This document shows, in pieces, positions 11,268 through 43,716 of a stretch of 64,000 nucleotides of DNA. Origin of the DNA: a virus; IMG/VR virus record IMGVR_UViG_3300032213_003144, positions 64,001 through 128,000 of that record; one strand, given 5' to 3'. Numbering within the stretch: position 1 is the stretch's first letter; each line of letters starts with the position of its first letter. A program made the position numbers and the translations under genes. Below the pieces are notes generated by a model that was not told the DNA's origin, did not search any database, and was given only the letters and a program-made list of their open reading frames with translations.

Positions 11268-12154
11268 TTTTCAACGATTCAAAAGCCGAACATCTTGGTG
11301 GTGGTGTTGTTGTATTTCGCAATGCTGTATCTGTTAATTGGGAGTTTGCTAATAATATTTCAAAAGAAATAGTTGATAGAGAAGTTGTAGAAATGTATTC
11401 TCCGGCAATAAATCCAGATAGCGGCAAAGAAGAATACGTAAACAGAAGTGGATACTTCTTTTCTAAAACCGGAATCGACAAAATGCCCAAAAGGGGCTCA
11501 AGGGTTCATCAGGACACCAGGGGCGAGGTTGTCGAGTTGTTTACATTTTTAGAAGACTCAAAAGATAGGTACTTGTTCAAATACATGCACATGTTTCCAT
11601 TATCATATAAAAATATTTGGTGGAAAGTTAAAGGGCATTTAGTTAACTATTCGTCTGAATGTGGTGGATACATCGGTGAACACAGTGACACCAGCGTTGA
11701 CTATGTTTACGGCATTCCTCACCCACCCCATCAGTTGGCGTCAAGAAATACGCTCTCTTGCATTGTGTATTTTGGCAGCTGCGTTGATGGACACATTCCT
11801 TCTGGGCCTGGTGATTTTACTGGTGGACATCATAAATTTACATATCTTGATATTGAGTACATCCCAAACCGAGGGGACATACTGATGTTCCCGTCAAACT
11901 ATGTAGCAGCACACGAGGTAACACCAGTTAGGTCAGGAAATAGATTCACCTATCTCGGATGGTATGCACACGGAACTCCAAACCCAAACGTCAATGAAGA
12001 AGTCGAGGACCCAGGAGTCAATCCAGAAAAAGCCGCAATATCATCAAATGTTTATATCCCATATTTAAGAGATAAATTCTTGGATTATCTAGACTCTGTT
12101 GGTGAAGATAAATCTTCAAAAACATATAGACTTGCCCTCGGGGAAGGCATATGA
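11264..12154 (+). CDS. 2OG-Fe(II) oxygenase (LGGGVVVF paralog family)
   Basis: HSD, FTGG, FPSNY..AHEV, GNRFTYL. Confidence 0.85.
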   Translation: MIFNDSKAEHLGGGVVVFRNAVSVNWEFANNISKEIVDREVVEMYSPAINPDSGKEEYVNRSGYFFSKTGIDKMPKRGSRVHQDTRGEVVELFTFLEDSKDRYLFKYMHMFPLSYKNIWWKVKGHLVNYSSECGGYIGEHSDTSVDYVYGIPHPPHQLASRNTLSCIVYFGSCVDGHIPSGPGDFTGGHHKFTYLDIEYIPNRGDILMFPSNYVAAHEVTPVRSGNRFTYLGWYAHGTPNPNVNEEVEDPGVNPEKAAISSNVYIPYLRDKFLDYLDSVGEDKSSKTYRLALGEGI

Positions 12155-12879
12155 AATTAACACACCTCGGAAGCGGAATAGTATTAGTACGAAATTTAGT
12201 CGAAATTTCGCACGATGACACCAATGAAATAAGTGGAATATTCAACTCAACGGCACCACAAGGTTTTTCGATTGTTAATGGGAAAATAATAAGTGATGGT
12301 GGATATGAGTTTGACGAGATTGGTAGGAGCAAGTCTCCGACCAGATATACAGACATAGGAGAATTCGCTATAACAAAGAAGTTGAGGGAGTCAATGTATT
12401 CAGCAATCGTTGAATACTGTAAAGTATTCCCAGTTGCTCTTGAGTGTATAACTGGGCAGACTGATGGCTACATGATTAGATATGGTCACGGAAGTGATAT
12501 GGGTCCACACTCGGATTGCAATCTTCCGTACAAACCTGGAACCCTTGAGCCGATGACAAGTAGTCCTGCATTCAATACTCTTACAACCTCTATATTTCTT
12601 AACGACGGGTACGCCGGGGGGGAGGTGACTTTCAGGATGTGGGGAATCACGGTTAAGCCAGAAGCTGGAACTGCAATTATCTATCCATCAAATTTCATTG
12701 GCTGCCACGAGGTTGCGGAAGTCAGCGATGGAGAAAGGTGGGCTTTTCTTAGTTGGTTTTTCCACGGAAACGGACAGGAGAGCAAAGATGGTTCCTATGA
12801 GTGGTCCCAGCAACTAAAGCAAAAAGTTGGACTTGGAAATATTTTTCAGAAAAACATTCTAATAGGGGATATTAGCTGA
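12151..12879 (+). CDS. 2OG-Fe(II) oxygenase (LGGGVVVF paralog family)
   Basis: LGSGIVLV, HSD, FLNDGYAGGE, YPSNF..CHEV, GERWAFL. Confidence 0.85.
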   Translation: MKLTHLGSGIVLVRNLVEISHDDTNEISGIFNSTAPQGFSIVNGKIISDGGYEFDEIGRSKSPTRYTDIGEFAITKKLRESMYSAIVEYCKVFPVALECITGQTDGYMIRYGHGSDMGPHSDCNLPYKPGTLEPMTSSPAFNTLTTSIFLNDGYAGGEVTFRMWGITVKPEAGTAIIYPSNFIGCHEVAEVSDGERWAFLSWFFHGNGQESKDGSYEWSQQLKQKVGLGNIFQKNILIGDIS

Positions 12880-31500: not shown

Positions 31501-33543
31501 ATTGAATGGGTCAAGAGAAACCGCACCACCACCTCTGAATGCGCTAAGAGCTTTTTGGTCATAGGCCTCACCGCTTATGTTCCCCTTATTGAAACTGTTT
31601 CTTCTTGCCGTATGGCTCATGTCTGTGACATGTCCTGCTGTTCTGACTGTCCCATCTGCGTTATAGGTTCTCCCATTAGATATTCCTACTATCCCGCGTT
31701 GACCCATAAATGAAGTATTTCTCTGCGCCCCTAGCATGTATCCAGCCCCTACGGCACTAGCAGAACCAGCTCTGGCCCCAGACGCAAGTGATGGACCTCC
31801 TGGCCCAACTACAGCACCTCTGCCACCAGGCCCAACAGGACCTGGGACCCTTCCACCGCCAGCTCCAGGAACCGGGCTACCACCAATGCTTACCGTTCCT
31901 GCTGTTACGTTCATTTGCTGGGTTTTTAGTCTTCCGGCTTCTGGTGCCATTCTTCCACTAACTTTCCCCATGGTTCGCCCAGCAAGACTAAAAGCAAGAA
32001 GTGGGGCGAGAGTTGTCATTAGGCCTTTACCTAATCCACCTGTGAGCATCTTCGTCATCATCCCGAATATCTGTGCAACCATATTCATTATCTTCGTAAG
32101 GAATGGAAGAAGGTCAAAAAATCCTTTCTTAAGATTCATAAACAATTCTGAACCTTTTGAAATCATTCCAGCAAGAGCCTCACCAAAGGCGCTTACTTCT
32201 CCTTCGTTTTTTATTAATAAATCATTAAACAGCCATAAATTGCTAGCACCACCCTGAAGAGCTTTACCTATTGGCTTAAATGCTTTTTCCAGAACTCTTG
32301 CACCATCCTGAAGTGGTCGCATGTAGTCATTAACGCGTTTCCAGCCTTGCTTGAAATCTTTCATCCAACTGCCCATACGTTCGAACATACCGGTAGCTTT
32401 CGGTAAGAATTCCCGAATCGTCTTTACCATCCAGTTGCTTACGGAATCAACAGCATTGACCATGCCGTCGGTAATTGTTTCGAACCCCATTGACTGACCA
32501 ATTGTTGCACTTATTCGCTGAAGGTCTCTTTTGATTACCTTAAATACGCCCTCAAAAGCACCTTTTGTTGGTTCAAGGAACTGGTCTCCAAAGTCGGCAA
32601 ATTCAGTTTTTAACTGAGTCATGTATGACTTAAGTCGACCAATCAGTGTGTTATTTATTGCATCGAATTGCCCTGCCACTCCACCTTTTTCAGCAAAAAG
32701 ACCAGAAAACAGGGCATCCTTAAAGCCAGCTTTTGTTTGTGTGAACTTTGATTCCTTCAATGCTTTTTGCATCTCTGGTCCTAGTTTGTTCGCTTCGGCT
32801 TTTACATCCGCAAGACTTTTCTTCTGGTCATTGAGTGCAGCGACAACAGCTGCAACTTGCTCGATTGCCTTCTGTGGGTCTTGCCCAGCGGAACCAAAGT
32901 CCATCAATGCTTTTAAAGTTTTATTGCTTGCGTTTATCTGTGTCGAACTCATTGTTTTCGACATAACGGCATATGCTTTATTTAGACCATCAACACCAAG
33001 AATTGCCAGGTCTGCATCAGCCTGTAAGTTGCGCATTGCCATTCTGGTCTGATTCATTGCTGAACCGAACTGTTGTGCGCCCTTGCCTCTGTAGGCGTAC
33101 ATTGCTGCCTGTTGTTCGCGCATCGCTGCGGCCGCAGCTCCAAGTGCCATGGTTAGCGCTGCAGCACCTCCGGCAATTAACTGCATTGCCCCACCGTATG
33201 CCTTCATCAGGAATCTTCCCGAAGCAAAAAGTGCGTGAGTTGCAAGCATGGTTGCGCCGAGAAGACCCATTTCCAGAACAACGCCTTTAATGGCCATACC
33301 CAGGAACTTGGTCATTCCTTTCCCGGTCATTTTGACCATGGAATCTATTTGGTCAAAACTTTTTTTCCATTTTCTTGATGTATTCTGAAAGCTTAGAGAC
33401 GACCTGGCCATCTGTGCGCCGAGGTCACGACTACCCAGTTTCTTGGCTGCTCTATCAAGAGCAAGTAATTCGAGGCGTGCTTTTACAAGTTCTTTAGTCT
33501 TGGCATCAAATGAAATTTTGATTTTTACAAGCTCGTCTGCCAT
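28597..33543 (-). CDS. Tape measure protein with C-terminal M15-like peptidase domain
   Basis: 1648 aa, Ala/Gly/Met-rich helical; follows the chaperone; C-terminal ITSAWR..SDHVTGKAYD..HLH. Confidence 0.85.
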   Translation of the reverse strand: MADELVKIKISFDAKTKELVKARLELLALDRAAKKLGSRDLGAQMARSSLSFQNTSRKWKKSFDQIDSMVKMTGKGMTKFLGMAIKGVVLEMGLLGATMLATHALFASGRFLMKAYGGAMQLIAGGAAALTMALGAAAAAMREQQAAMYAYRGKGAQQFGSAMNQTRMAMRNLQADADLAILGVDGLNKAYAVMSKTMSSTQINASNKTLKALMDFGSAGQDPQKAIEQVAAVVAALNDQKKSLADVKAEANKLGPEMQKALKESKFTQTKAGFKDALFSGLFAEKGGVAGQFDAINNTLIGRLKSYMTQLKTEFADFGDQFLEPTKGAFEGVFKVIKRDLQRISATIGQSMGFETITDGMVNAVDSVSNWMVKTIREFLPKATGMFERMGSWMKDFKQGWKRVNDYMRPLQDGARVLEKAFKPIGKALQGGASNLWLFNDLLIKNEGEVSAFGEALAGMISKGSELFMNLKKGFFDLLPFLTKIMNMVAQIFGMMTKMLTGGLGKGLMTTLAPLLAFSLAGRTMGKVSGRMAPEAGRLKTQQMNVTAGTVSIGGSPVPGAGGGRVPGPVGPGGRGAVVGPGGPSLASGARAGSASAVGAGYMLGAQRNTSFMGQRGIVGISNGRTYNADGTVRTAGHVTDMSHTARRNSFNKGNISGEAYDQKALSAFRGGGAVSLDPFNNYSMRGAMGMGKALTMDQAAGSWYSERHAQREKNAEDRAYNAAVARERRDAAAAIIPKGAPGSGTSAVRRARAARLAAAEGTSFRDVRGSALRDFGQAVTDRVTGAGLKAYGAGAGLMAHGLQGRYDPNMQSETLMYNSDGSVRQEHYNPKTGKTVSDPSKYKGKTPLELRDVKQATIGGYVNAGELRDSAISRYKHSQMSVADGGTGRTGFMARKIERINLARDLNRINRNETKFGAASNKFGKSMGGKMGASMGLGLASQYAPEEMQGAMALGGMVSQFDARAGLAVAGLGGAWNAKSAGAGAMAGAAGGAALGSYLGPYGALAGAVIGGLAGAFKGMINKGKEEAKKAKEAMKNNMAEVFSSVVKQGAGKFFRSQDNLKALQESGYDTSTMKDRGSFEGIGAGYLSKAANIKAMVTGKVKTGGTVGDIASNKALLEQVLNNQEKMGVVTTEKERKDMFKNDGAVQAALNAAGTVSKGETSAYQMQDRVITNRLDQFVKMSGKSIPELEKMAHELGFNLYDTTIKFTDALKGMGLAAGKSADQMKQAFTDIFLAGSNLFTKARTQQEAQKTINQSSQGFRDQMLSGGLGGEEKTQATNDYFESYFTQALAASGNDPIEAYLSTQNLFGQGEEGGAFAKGATFEGMGKDVLSNEILKKQMATMSKEVLGTATTQVSGLLTEAGFSGDAGQIKERLTTMSKEDPTKFADFLRKMQAGELDFSATGNQDKGNALSFALNQAGLGGLTTTALEDLTGDGGAKDLDEVANRMSDASDEFKAGVKQFTDATKGFFTGKSDKPEWWDQKPDWYKSTDTSTPRGDTTSSRLSQTMARHGAMNSQLTGKRTITSAWRNTALGSINSDHVTGKAYDLIGQNLGQYQRLVHANGGFAEFHGTLADRHLHVVPGAGYGDTAVPSMSRMTSGGSGGSSNSNTMTVSINVSGGNGSPEQVANMVMMKLKDEQRKMQERS

Positions 33544-39671: not shown

Positions 39672-40232
39672 TCACCTGTCAGCATTTGGTGGCGATTCAA
39701 AGAATGGCCCAGAAATACCCTCTTTCCCGGATGGGGCCTCTATCGGGACCCATGCACGAGCATAGTTGTGTTCTTTTATCTTTCGCACTTTTATCAGACT
39801 GCTGTCAAGCATTAACGATAACTCATCAGATTTCATGCACAACATGTCATCAAAATCCTGGTTCGTGTAGCGACCTGACCGTTTCATCTCGCGAACTATT
39901 TTTGAAAGCTTTGCTGCAACAATGACAGATTTTCCTCGATTTAGCTGAATGTGCATCATCATTGCTTCTAGCTTGTCGCAATCATGGAATACAACAGGTA
40001 TACGATTGCCGTGAATTTCAGATATTTCAGAAATACTCATAAATAGGTTGTATCTCTCCGAACCATCTATTATCTCGCCAGTCTCCCTCCGTGCGTGTAT
40101 TGGGTGTATGAACCCATGCTGCATTAAGGATGAAGAAATTACGAGCAGCTCAGGTCTAATCGTGTATGTTGTCTTCCAATCTGGGATAACGAGCGAGCCA
40201 GCACTAACCCATTCAATTTTTATTTCTTTCAT
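39672..40232 (-). CDS. ParB/Srx-like N-terminal domain protein (IbrB-like)
   Basis: SL..HGFI.PI, IIDG.ER, IPVV, AM..HI.LNR.K. Confidence 0.7.
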   Translation of the reverse strand: MKEIKIEWVSAGSLVIPDWKTTYTIRPELLVISSSLMQHGFIHPIHARRETGEIIDGSERYNLFMSISEISEIHGNRIPVVFHDCDKLEAMMMHIQLNRGKSVIVAAKLSKIVREMKRSGRYTNQDFDDMLCMKSDELSLMLDSSLIKVRKIKEHNYARAWVPIEAPSGKEGISGPFFESPPNADR

Positions 40233-41356
40233 AGTTCTAGTTCGCTTTCAATTATTCTCACTGCATTTGCTTTGGTCTTTGGTCCAACAGGGGTCGGCGA
40301 ATTAACATCTATCTCATTGAGCATGAGATTTCTTATTAACCAAGAAATCGGATATCCATATGGGTCCTGAATATGTTTTTTTCTAAACTTTGAAACATAA
40401 ACACGCGCTTCCATTTTTCTTCTATCGCCAACAAGATACTCTTCAATAAACTCAGATGCACCATCAAATCCTCTACCAGAGTATCTGGCAATAAGGCTTT
40501 CGCTGTCAAATTCAGGCCACCACCTTCGCTGCGCGTCGATGAACGGGAAGCACTCCCAAAGCCTGTCATAAAATTCTGGCTCAGTAGCAATAACATCGCC
40601 TATCCTTCTGATTGCTGTTGCATGGAGCGGTATCCCAACCCTCGTATTACTACCAGTAGCTACCGCCAAGTCGTAGTACTCACAGTATTCGGCTCCGTGT
40701 TCTTCTGTTATGAACTTAAATACGTCATTCGTATTCCAGTCATAAATTACTTTTGCAAATTTAAGAGGAATTCCAGCCTTGAGTTTATATGGAGTATTGA
40801 TGTAATTTTCGTGCAGTTTCTGGACTACGGAGCGATATCGCACCATTGACTCACTAGCCCTAACTCCTGTAAGAAACGCAACATTGCCCTTTTTACCCTG
40901 CATCGTGTAGTAGTCGGTTTGTTCAGGGAGAGACGTACTATGCGATAGACCAAAGTGGTTACCGTTGATAGCAAACTCTGGCATGTCTCTTAGCCATCTT
41001 TGCTGCTCGCCTCTTTGCTCACTCCATAGGATTGTTGTGAGCCTATATCCAAGAATCCAAATTTCAGCAGGGTATGGCAAGCAGTACCACTCCATATCAA
41101 CCCAGTCGTAGTTCCTGACCTTCTCAACGTATTCAACAACGCTTGGGCTCACCATCTCTTCGTCACGGAAAATAACTTTTACCGGACCGAGTCCTCTTTC
41201 TTCGTGCACTTCTTTGGCTAGATAGAGAATTGCTGTTGAGTCTTTCCCACCAGAAAACTGAACGCACACCGTGTCGAACTGGTCGTAGACATGCCTAATA
41301 CGCTGTCTTGCAGCATCCACGCATGTCATATCTAGGAATAATCTCTGTCTAGTCAT
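40229..41356 (-). CDS. PAPS reductase-family PP-loop protein (IbrA-like)
   Basis: V.FSGGKDS, F.DEE, TGVRA.ES..R, IYDW...DV. Confidence 0.85.
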   Translation of the reverse strand: MTRQRLFLDMTCVDAARQRIRHVYDQFDTVCVQFSGGKDSTAILYLAKEVHEERGLGPVKVIFRDEEMVSPSVVEYVEKVRNYDWVDMEWYCLPYPAEIWILGYRLTTILWSEQRGEQQRWLRDMPEFAINGNHFGLSHSTSLPEQTDYYTMQGKKGNVAFLTGVRASESMVRYRSVVQKLHENYINTPYKLKAGIPLKFAKVIYDWNTNDVFKFITEEHGAEYCEYYDLAVATGSNTRVGIPLHATAIRRIGDVIATEPEFYDRLWECFPFIDAQRRWWPEFDSESLIARYSGRGFDGASEFIEEYLVGDRRKMEARVYVSKFRKKHIQDPYGYPISWLIRNLMLNEIDVNSPTPVGPKTKANAVRIIESELEL

Positions 41357-42162
41357 GGTGTGTGCTCTGAGATAAATGAAATTAATTTCTCAGCAACAGT
41401 GTCACCTTCCAATCCTGCGTCAGAACGTAGCCACTTTATGAACGTATACCACTCAGCTTGTTGCTGAGTGTCGTCAAAAACTATTGTGTACTGAACAACA
41501 GCCTGTGGTGCCGAGCGAGGGGAAACCGTGGTTGAACCCCTAATCACTGCGTCGTTCTGGTCGACTCCAGGACGAACATTTATTTGCTGATTTCCATCTT
41601 TGTCTTTTGTTATTGAGACGGTATTTAGGTCGACCGACGTGTCTTTCTTTACTTTTTCTTCTTCTTCTTCTTCTTTAGAAAAAATAATTGGTGGAACGTA
41701 TTTGTCCGAACCAAGAACTTGATACTCTTCCCTGATTGATGTCTGTTCAAATTCTGCAATCTCGAACTCATCCCATCCAAGACTGTCAACGAGCTCTGGA
41801 TACTCTTCGTGAATTTCAAGGATGAACTCACTTAGCAATTCCGCTTCTGTGTAGCCAAGCTCCATTGTTCTGTTGTCGGCAATAGCAAATGCAATCGCCT
41901 TCTTATTGTCAACGTCATAGCTAACTGCTGCTATCTTGTCCCATCCAAGAAGTTTTGCTGCTTCTAGCTGATGGTTACCCGCAATAACTGTTGCCGTTCC
42001 ATCGTCGTTTGGGCGAATAACAATTGGTTTTATCTGCCCAAATTCTTTATATGAAGCCATGATTGACTGGACGTTACCTTTTCTTGGGTTTCCCTCAAGT
42101 GGAACAAGTTTGTCGACATCAACAGCAAGTTGCTTTAATGATTCGTGAATTTTATCTGACAT
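41353..42162 (-). CDS. ParB/Srx N-terminal domain protein
   Basis: NPRKG, S..EFGQ.KPIV, VIAGNH.LEAAK.LGW, A.AIADNR. Confidence 0.85.
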   Translation of the reverse strand: MSDKIHESLKQLAVDVDKLVPLEGNPRKGNVQSIMASYKEFGQIKPIVIRPNDDGTATVIAGNHQLEAAKLLGWDKIAAVSYDVDNKKAIAFAIADNRTMELGYTEAELLSEFILEIHEEYPELVDSLGWDEFEIAEFEQTSIREEYQVLGSDKYVPPIIFSKEEEEEEKVKKDTSVDLNTVSITKDKDGNQQINVRPGVDQNDAVIRGSTTVSPRSAPQAVVQYTIVFDDTQQQAEWYTFIKWLRSDAGLEGDTVAEKLISFISEHTP

Positions 42163-42164
42163 AG

Positions 42165-42500
42165 TTATACCTGTGTTCTGACGTTTGCATTGAGTGTTCT
42201 CATTGCGTCAATTGATGTTCTTAGGGATAGAAGTAATTCTCTCTTCGTTTTAACTAACGCCTCTGCGCACCTGTAGTCAAAATTTTGCTCGTCCATCTTG
42301 TAGTCCGCCCAAGCTTCTCGCTCCTTGATTGAACCCTTCGCGGATAAATATTCGCGAGCCCATGTTGACTTATAGAGCGCATCTTTTTTTGCAGCGTCCA
42401 TCGCTAAGGTTTCAAATTTTTCTGTTTCTGTTTCAAGTCTGTCTATTAGTCTTATAAGCTCTTGTTCAATTTCTACCTGGCTTATGGGTGATGTTCTCAT
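42165..42500 (-). CDS. Coiled-coil hypothetical protein
   Basis: ATG 42500 coupled to the RuvC stop; GGGG RBS-like run. Confidence 0.6.
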   Translation of the reverse strand: MRTSPISQVEIEQELIRLIDRLETETEKFETLAMDAAKKDALYKSTWAREYLSAKGSIKEREAWADYKMDEQNFDYRCAEALVKTKRELLLSLRTSIDAMRTLNANVRTQV

Positions 42501-43027
42501 TATTCCCCTTTTTTCTCGATTGGCGTCCAATCTACCTTGGCTAGGGCATCCATGTTCTGTGCCGGCCAATTAAATCGTGGTTTACCTATGTGGGCCAAGC
42601 CCATCTCCTGCAGAACCCACGCGTCACATCTGTCATCAGCTCCAGGATTTTGCCAAACAATTCCAGTACGTGCTGATATAGACGAAATCACTTCATTTTT
42701 TGATGCGTTTCCTTTTCCGGTTGCAAACTTTGCTCGACACGTTGGGGGTATCGTTACGTAGGGAATTCCAATTTGCCACAGCAGTAGGCGAATCACCCCA
42801 CCGAGCTCTCCAATAGAGAAAGCCTGACCGCTGCGTGAAGCAAACGAGTAACCCTCAAGCATGACGGCCTTTACCTCGTATCTATTGATTAGGGATTCTA
42901 TTTCCCTTTTTACTAGCCAGAGTCTTTCTGGTCCAGACTTATTAAAAGAGATAACTCCAGATTCGTCGCCAAACGCATACCCAGTTGATGTTAGGGATAG
43001 GTCTAGTCCAAGAAAATCGTTTATCAC
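42500..43027 (-). CDS. RuvC-like Holliday junction resolvase
   Basis: LGLDLSLTSTG, VMLEGY, ELGG, P...KFATGKGNASK, DD.CDA; leaderless TAGTAT-6 nt-GTG. Confidence 0.85.
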   Translation of the reverse strand: MINDFLGLDLSLTSTGYAFGDESGVISFNKSGPERLWLVKREIESLINRYEVKAVMLEGYSFASRSGQAFSIGELGGVIRLLLWQIGIPYVTIPPTCRAKFATGKGNASKNEVISSISARTGIVWQNPGADDRCDAWVLQEMGLAHIGKPRFNWPAQNMDALAKVDWTPIEKKGE

Positions 43028-43044
43028 AGTGACATACTAACCTA

Positions 43045-43085
43045 AAAGCAAAAACCCACCGAACATCCAGCGAGTTCGGTGGGTT
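43045..43085 (-). terminator. Intrinsic terminator
   Basis: 12-bp perfect stem AACCCACCGAAC/GTTCGGTGGGTT, 9-nt loop, then TTTGCTTTT on the - strand. Confidence 0.8.
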
Positions 43086-43186
43086 AAATTCGAACCGTTT
43101 GCGGCGGCTCAGAATCATTGCCGTGTAGGAACACTCGACTCTTGGACCACCGCCTTTCTTCCGTGAAGGGTAGATATCGGCTAGAC
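43045..43186 (-). ncRNA. Candidate sRNA-1 (~140 nt) with a segment complementary to the 16S rRNA 3' end
   Basis: TGcTAACCT -10 at 43193-43201, predicted +1 G at 43186, terminator at 43045-85; contains AGAAAGGCGGUGGUCCA. Confidence 0.55.
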
Positions 43187-43252
43187 GAATTAAGGTTAGC
43201 ACTTATGTTATGCACTAATAAGTGAAGAGCTTTTAAATAATGTTCCACTAAA

Positions 43253-43316
43253 GTAAAAAACGCAAAAGCCGAGTGAGTCTCCCCACCCGACTTTCGCGCC
43301 TATAACGGTCCTAAGA
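43253..43316 (-). ncRNA. Candidate sRNA-2 (~63 nt) antisense to 23S rRNA helix 69
   Basis: TATCGT -10 at 43323-28; 5' CUUAGGACCGUUAUAG, then an 18-bp WC/GU stem with GAGA loop and U tract. Confidence 0.6.
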
Positions 43317-43374
43317 ATTACAACGATACACCCGTACTAAATAGTGAAAGTGTTAATTATAAAACTATAAATAA

Positions 43375-43716
43375 TTATCTTTCCCAGCCATGTTTTGCTA
43401 ACCCTAAATCAAACGCAAGTTGAGGGTAATTACCAATTCTTACGTGACACAGCCTGCAAACTGCAAGTACATTTTCCTCATCAAGTATGGAGCCACCCTG
43501 AGAGCGTCTGATTATTTCGTGAACATCCCTACTGAGATGTTGGTTGTATGTCGTCTTGCCGTCGTGAGTTGCAAAAACTTTACAAGCCTCGCATGCCGGT
43601 CTTTCCCTTAGTATTTTTTCAACAAACTTACGCCGTTCGACATAAATCTCTTCGGTTTTTGCACTTCTTTTTTTAGGAGGGCCACTTCTCTTGATTGGTT
43701 TGTTTCTTCGAATCAT
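43375..43716 (-). CDS. HNH endonuclease-like protein
   Basis: CEAC, DVHEIIRRSQGG, NVLAVCRLCH. Confidence 0.75.
   Translation of the reverse strand: MIRRNKPIKRSGPPKKRSAKTEEIYVERRKFVEKILRERPACEACKVFATHDGKTTYNQHLSRDVHEIIRRSQGGSILDEENVLAVCRLCHVRIGNYPQLAFDLGLAKHGWER

Follow-up and report, generated by a model that had tools for sequence, protein, structure and literature searches.

This report concerns two putative small RNA genes, here called unit 1 and unit 2, in the genome of a virus (IMG/VR record IMGVR_UViG_3300032213_003144; 170,425 bp). The window analyzed is a stretch of 64,000 nucleotides (nt), bases 64001-128000 of that record, and the coordinates of the locus are window positions. Both units lie in a 347-bp intergenic gap (43028-43374) within a train of minus-strand genes. 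The gap is bounded upstream by a gene for an HNH endonuclease (43375..43716, minus strand; PHROG matches) and downstream by a gene for a RuvC resolvase (42500..43027, minus strand; domain and PHROG matches). Each unit carries a conserved stretch that is complementary to ribosomal RNA (rRNA). The stretch in unit 1 matches the helix 69 region of 23S rRNA, and that in unit 2 matches the 3' tail of 16S rRNA, the site of the anti-Shine-Dalgarno (anti-SD) sequence.

Unit 1 is predicted to be an RNA of about 65 nt that runs from about 43316 to 43252 on the minus strand. It is preceded by a -10 box of the form TAnnnT (TATCGT, 43323..43328, minus strand), whose T, A, and final T (columns T43, A44, and T48) are invariant in 41 relatives. 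From the spacing of this box, transcription would start near 43316. The 17 nt placed at the 5' end, CUUAGGACCGUUAUAGG (43299..43315, minus strand), form the seed and are unpaired in the fold. They are followed by an intrinsic terminator, a hairpin and U-run at 43252..43298 (minus strand), recovered by a terminator scan (hairpin and T-run, 43301..43258) as well as by RNAalifold. The hairpin has 16 pairs, seven of them with compensatory changes in the RNAalifold model, and the fold has a z-score of -6.0. Like those of the unit 2 terminator, its G.U pairs are valid on the minus strand only, and for this reason the RNAs are assigned to that strand. With a predicted promoter of its own, an intrinsic terminator, and a conserved unpaired seed, unit 1 has the make-up expected of a seed-and-terminator small RNA.

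The seed of unit 1 is the part that resembles rRNA. Using the annotated E. coli rrnH operon as the source of 23S, 16S, and 5S sequences, positions 43300-43315 of the window's plus strand are identical over 16 nt to nt 1914-1929 of 23S rRNA (rrlH), so that bases 43315-43300 of the RNA are antisense to nt 1929-1914. This is the longest word that the 170-kb phage shares with any of the three E. coli rRNAs, the next being 14 nt. The complement covers the loop and the 3' strand of helix 69, up to the junction with helix 70. In DNA form the seed (CTTAGGACCGTTATAGG, 43315-43299) is invariant in 41 of 41 RuvC-anchored relatives, except for an A-to-G change in one clade that retains a G.U pair with U1923 of 23S rRNA. 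In a comparison of 92 distinct regions, the surroundings of unit 1 show no other recurring rRNA complement of 11 nt or more.

Immediately upstream of the unit 1 -10 box there is another conserved block, TTAACACTTTCA(C/G)TATTTA (43329-43356, minus strand). No second copy of it occurs in the phage at two or fewer mismatches. With this single occurrence it does not represent a promoter motif of general use, and it may be a site for a regulator.

Unit 2 appears to be a pseudoknotted RNA of about 140 nt, from 43186 to 43046 on the minus strand. An extended -10 box, TGcTAACCT (TG-n-TA-nnn-T; 43193..43201, minus strand), would place the start of transcription near 43186; among 33 relatives none of its T52, G53, T55, A56, and T60 varies. 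At the other end is an intrinsic terminator (43050..43084, minus strand; 43084..43054 in the terminator scan), the stem of which is 99% paired and shows three compensatory pairs. The 5' segment UCUAGCC (43179..43185, minus strand) pairs with the terminator loop GCUGGA (43071-43066), forming the predicted pseudoknot. In this helix 91.5% of cells are paired, as against 30-49% in controls slid by one to three columns, and one U-A pair is replaced by C-G in one clade.

Between these two ends lies the purine-rich tract AGAAAGGCGGUGGUCC (43144..43159, minus strand), which complements the 16S 3' tail GGAUCACCUCCUUUCU. Its pattern AGAA.GG.GGUGGU is invariant in 33 relatives. The GGUGG part also has a partner within unit 2, GCCGCCGC (43101..43108, minus strand), with pair probabilities of about 1.0. 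In relatives this partner is CCACC or CCGCC and its register varies. Note that RNAalifold on a MAFFT alignment of unit 2 returns the terminator and a 3-bp helix only; the central part of the RNA varies too much for alignment, and the long-range helix is hence drawn from single-sequence pair probabilities. The tract stays invariant while its internal partner shifts in both sequence and register, which suggests that it is constrained by something other than the fold of the RNA. Another word of unit 2, GGTTCGAAT, is not conserved among relatives.

Unit 2 does not look like a coding sequence or the leader of one. Its most conserved part contains indels whose lengths are not divisible by three, and downstream of the tract there is no conserved start codon; it is therefore regarded as non-coding. 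A Shine-Dalgarno (SD)-bearing mRNA leader of the riboswitch or thermometer kind was considered and rejected: besides the missing start codon, the terminator precedes ruvC, which has a leaderless start of its own. Pairing between units 1 and 2 was set aside too, as a partial GGACC/GGUCC match seen by eye is not kept in relatives. There is a further small feature in the fold of unit 2. The word UCUAG in the 5' segment (43179-43185) and a second word, UC(U/G)AG, after the purine tract (43133-43137, minus strand) both change U to C in one clade (L073-L076). This hints at alternative folds, in which the terminator loop could pair with one word or the other.

The match of unit 2 to 16S rRNA was evaluated with the tail GGATCACCTCCTTTCTA of a Neobacillus locus, which is of the Gram-positive type. 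This type of tail is widely conserved (PMC6288834). Paired with the tail GGAUCACCUCCUUUCUA, the tract (43159-43144, minus strand) gives -26.9 kcal/mol, the top value among 113,598 windows taken from both phage strands, where the genome mean is -6.6 kcal/mol with a standard deviation of 2.8. The duplex comprises 15 pairs, of which one is G.U, with a single C/U mismatch; in most relatives a bulged C replaces the mismatch. The tracts of relatives give about -20 to -27 kcal/mol with the same tail, relatives with unit 2 alone included. The runner-up complement in the phage, GGGGGGGAGGTGAC (12609-12640, plus strand; -25.2 kcal/mol), lies within an open reading frame (ORF) at 12151..12879 and has the look of a G-rich run that arose by chance.

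Taken alone, a 16-mer in common with rRNA is no rarity, since by our estimate a genome would be expected to have about 0.3 of them. The two best rRNA complements of the whole genome, however, lie about 160 nt apart on one strand, for which our arithmetic gives a chance of about 0.002. As both sit at invariant parts of conserved candidate RNA genes, a chance origin is very unlikely. The sequence-only reading of this DNA had pointed to two same-strand units, each with its own promoter and terminator, that match different functional centers of the ribosome and lie so close together that coincidence is hard to accept. These observations bear up well: the TAnnnT boxes are invariant, the terminators covary, one match is an exact 16-nt complement of 23S rRNA, and the other is the best 16S-tail duplex in the phage.

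To see how the units are distributed, 80 related viral loci were gathered through RuvC alone, that is, not selected on the RNAs, giving 52 distinct upstream regions. nhmmer finds unit 1 in 47 of these regions and unit 2 in 40. RuvC identity falls to 57% across relatives in which the unit 1 seed and the unit 2 tract stay constant. In terms of occupancy, both units are present in 39 regions, unit 1 alone in eight, unit 2 alone in five (one of them truncated), and neither in none; it is notable that every region thus keeps at least one unit. With marginals of 0.90 and 0.85, independence predicts about 40 regions with both, close to the 39 observed, within the limits that the shared ancestry of the relatives sets on such counts. 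The fit to independence implies that the units are separable modules with a preferred common locus rather than an obligate pair.

Outside the RuvC-anchored set, the 17-mer seed occurs in at least 119 viral contigs. Among the seed-anchored loci listed, at least 62 have unit 2 and at least 52 are without it. Ten of the listed seed loci have neither RuvC nor HNH nearby and carry the same 17-mer between different 5' and 3' hairpins; judging from this arrangement they look like a second phage lineage. One record of this group (the one behind locus L113) contains two WhiB genes, suggesting that this lineage also infects actinobacteria. Contiguous pairing with 23S rRNA extends over 16-20 nt in most loci and reaches 28 nt (27 Watson-Crick pairs and one G.U) in L106 and L198. 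For the family as a whole, a pairing of 28 nt rules out coincidence.

Two other sets of sequences resemble the unit 2 tract. About 5.4 kb downstream of the anti-23S seed of L113 is AAAGGGCGGGTGGTCC, whose duplex with the 16S tail has an energy of -21.6 kcal/mol. As an ATG follows after about 11 nt, it may be a genuine SD site. Perfect matches to the 16-mer AGAAAGGAGGTGATCC in viral contigs were examined as candidate relatives of unit 2 and rejected, being mostly real SD sites or parts of reading frames. In L212-L330 this 16-mer recurs in one coding-region family (..EANEGTDLR..RKEVI..). It occurs, too, in several elements that consist of AGAAAGGAGGTGATCC, 2-5 nt, and ATCTCCC, some followed by a terminator; these may instead read in frame as RKEVIxxxP. 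Rfam has no family that matches.

Searches for known relatives of the two RNAs gave no match to a described family. The window has no match in Rfam 15 at gathering thresholds, and relaxing the E-value to 10 over 42950-43450 yields nothing beyond terminator-like matches that score 13-21 bits where the thresholds are 45-90. ARAGORN finds no tRNA or transfer-messenger RNA in the window. A bacterial homologue of the 17-mer was sought in 185,579 species genomes, and only variant 23S genes and chance matches in coding regions were found. In the full-text literature, no account turned up of natural RNAs, whether of phages or of bacteria, that are antisense to these sites in rRNA. From their sequences, the two RNAs are likely to be new families of promoter-to-terminator small RNAs, with rRNA as a target that would be without precedent.

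The phage, a large one from a lake, is a myovirus, with genes for tail sheath, baseplate J, portal, and TerL in the record, which also encodes four tRNAs and has a G+C content of 43-45%. Its host is probably a freshwater actinobacterium. This assignment follows from two WhiB-family genes, at 33260-33451 (minus strand) and 151964-152185 (plus strand) of the record, both outside the window; among 14 control genomes a WhiB match is found only in Corynebacterium. The closest TerL proteins among isolated phages are those of Gordonia phages (43% identity). GenBank phages have no DNA match to the region. By PHROGs and Pfam, none of the neighboring genes is RNA-related, and neither RNase III nor bS21 is found in the phage. 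Further along the minus strand (region 39672-42162), a 375-aa ORF (40229..41356) with an SGGKDS motif has a gene with a ParB_N domain (41353..42162) on its upstream side.

Translation start signals in the phage are of two kinds. The ruvC gene, immediately 3' of unit 2, has a leaderless-type start in which a -10 box (TAGTAT), 6 nt, and GTG follow one another (43025..43039, minus strand). The same arrangement, TAnnnT and 6-7 nt before GTG or ATG, is seen at ruvC in the majority of the 52 distinct upstream regions listed. Counting the longest-ORF start only of each of 187 ORFs, TAnnnT stands 6 nt before the start in 17 genes and 7 nt before it in seven (24/187, about 13%), compared with about two genes at other spacings. 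Leaderless transcripts would be expected to show such a placement. SD-like pairing of -6 kcal/mol or better is found at 35% of the longest starts versus 11% of random positions. Because the signatures of both are enriched, the phage evidently uses both leaderless and SD-led initiation.

We give roughly even chances to the reading that these are two separate actinophage non-coding RNA genes, each acting by base pairing with rRNA. Read from the observed sequences, conservation, folds, and complementarity, the transcripts would come to act on ribosomes as follows. Host RNA polymerase would transcribe both RNAs from their TAnnnT promoters. Unit 1 would pair with nt 1914-1930 of 23S rRNA, probably in free or late-assembling 50S subunits where helices 69-70 are exposed, and would block either the intersubunit bridge B2a or the final maturation of 50S. 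Unit 2 would be an orphan, over-long SD-like tract without a start codon, a non-productive decoy on the 16S 3' tail. Its open AGAAAGG end could be a toehold, and the GGUGG half may open upon binding. The net result would be host translation or ribosome production that is damped or reshaped. Widening the claim to phages at large, it is conceivable, at somewhat less than even odds, that phages of several phyla have repeatedly evolved RNAs pairing with 23S helices 69-70 and with the 16S tail, and that this lineage keeps both.

Direct pairing with free or immature subunits is favored because both rRNA sites are exposed and vulnerable. It is reported that MazF-mt6 cleaves helix 70 in 50S but not in 70S, and that MazF-mt3 cleaves both 23S helix 70 and the 16S anti-SD (PMC5408214). 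The anti-SD is also removed by MazF-mt11 and RelE1 (PMC12274833, PMC12620021). According to the article that cites them, a peptide nucleic acid (PNA) directed to helix 69 stops translation and growth of E. coli (Kulik 2017, cited in PMC12828698), and a PNA directed against the site at which 16S rRNA binds mRNA likewise stops translation and growth (Hatamoto 2009, cited in PMC12828698).

Several points weigh against action by rRNA pairing. According to the fold prediction GGUGGU, one half of the tract, is base-paired within unit 2 (mean unpaired probability 0.13, as against 0.46, or half open, for AGAAAGG), and binding would need strand opening from the AGAAAGG toehold. An invariant mismatch or bulge stands opposite the center of CCUCC. 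The tail used in the duplex calculations is not that of the host, whose own may differ. Helix 69 is base-paired and buried in 70S, so that for a 17-nt RNA perhaps no more than free or immature 50S is within reach. Since many SD sites are used by the phage, a strong anti-SD decoy would hurt the phage too. Lastly, both rRNA targets are universally conserved, and covariation with the host therefore provides no test.

In a rival reading, rRNA complementarity is not the working feature at all, unit 1 being an ordinary seed-and-terminator small RNA that acts on a host mRNA and unit 2 a structured protein-binding or regulatory RNA with the purine tract within its fold. The internal pairing of GGUGGU and the pseudoknot that closes unit 2 fit this explanation, as does the fact that a 16-mer shared with rRNA is not rare alone. 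It is nevertheless unlikely. The pairing with 23S rRNA reaches 28 nt in another lineage, and the genome's two best rRNA complements share one intergenic gap. The unit 2 tract is constant against a variable internal partner, and a seed fixed over hosts and lineages requires a target that is equally fixed. A search for seed targets within the phage itself gave a best site of -20.0 kcal/mol, in the range obtained with shuffled seeds (-18.9 to -24.1 kcal/mol).

Rather than two separate rRNA-pairing genes, the sequence-only reading had proposed a single takeover module. In this model the anti-SD and helix 69 blocks together stop SD-led initiation, which requires the subunits to join, and spare leaderless phage mRNAs that initiate on 70S ribosomes. 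The model is coherent but weak, partly supported as to its ingredients and improbable as a whole. In its favor, leaderless mRNAs are common in mycobacteria and other actinobacteria (PMC12274833), the host group suggested here. MazF-mt3 hits a comparable pair of sites and has been proposed to favor leaderless mRNAs (PMC5408214). One locus holds both units in 75% of relatives. The claim that many phage genes look leaderless stands for the 24 of 187 genes and for ruvC, which adjoins the RNAs, but many other genes are SD-led; normal SD sites in several structural genes were a caveat of the sequence-only reading itself. Likewise, co-conservation holds in that both units are conserved, but they are separable: the 25% of relatives with single units are as many as independence predicts, and the second lineage has unit 1 in another context. 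Leaderless mRNAs of the host would be spared equally. In mycobacteria, protein synthesis all but ceases when MazF-mt11 or RelE1 removes the anti-SD, and the model of leaderless-specific ribosomes from E. coli has not been upheld (PMC12274833, PMC12620021).

The same toxins suggest another role, in which the RNAs are anti-defence shields that make single-stranded rRNA sites, which host toxins cut during abortive infection, double-stranded and resistant to cleavage. MazF-mt3, -mt6, and -mt11 and RelE1 are single-strand-specific and act on the 16S anti-SD and 23S helix 70 in actinobacteria (PMC5408214, PMC12274833, PMC12620021), and unit 2 covers the CACCU and UCCUU sites. We regard this as a long shot. 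Unit 1 covers nt 1914-1930 and not the UUCCU at about 1939-1943, and only L106 and L198 reach nt 1941; a covered anti-SD would itself block SD use; and no toxin is known from the host of this phage. That the 23S-like stretch is a DNA-level element, a site of recombination or of nuclease action, perhaps by the adjacent HNH enzyme or of the homing-endonuclease type, is scarcely credible. Most loci do have an HNH gene immediately upstream, and the 16-mer overlaps what we take to be the core of the I-CeuI target in 23S rDNA. But the hairpins at its flanks covary and contain G.U pairs that fit one strand only, neither the -10 box nor the U-run varies, the motif is kept in a lineage without HNH, and the HNH gene is stable and conserved rather than sporadic.

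If two separate RNAs do act by pairing with rRNA, they would be the first natural antisense RNAs with a demonstrated action on bacterial rRNA itself, disabling or re-tuning host ribosomes during infection. Binding to the subunits would make them a natural counterpart of antisense antibiotics and a new class of phage takeover tool, one that targets the ribosome rather than single messages. They would also offer an experimental handle on the in-cell accessibility of helices 69-70 and of the anti-SD tail, and on translation in hosts rich in leaderless mRNAs. Unit 1, a 17-nt seed and a terminator, is simple enough for testing and re-targeting.

Among known systems, unit 1 is closest in build to base-pairing small RNAs of the RybB and OmrA/B type, in which bacteria and phages combine a seed with a terminator. 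Like these it would have its own promoter, with a short unpaired 5' seed and a terminator as the sole other structure. Unlike these its best complement is rRNA and not mRNA; a further difference is that, to our knowledge, the host group of the phage has no Hfq. The PNAs against helix 69 and 16S rRNA, as far as the citing article describes them, share the same two target regions with the phage RNAs, but they are man-made agents of 10-15 units, whereas the phage agents are natural, virus-encoded RNAs known here from sequence. MazF-mt3, -mt6, and -mt11 and RelE1 act on the same exposed actinobacterial rRNA sites, MazF-mt3 on both. They are, however, protein nucleases that cut, while the phage RNAs could only pair, and the unit 1 site (nt 1914-1930) adjoins the MazF cut site in helix 70 without lying on it. 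Another example of a small RNA on the ribosome is the tRNA-Val fragment of Haloferax, which binds the small subunit and competes with mRNA. As is proposed for the phage RNAs, it acts on the ribosome itself and not on one message. It is a cell-encoded archaeal stress response without long Watson-Crick pairing to rRNA, and in this it differs from the two phage RNAs.

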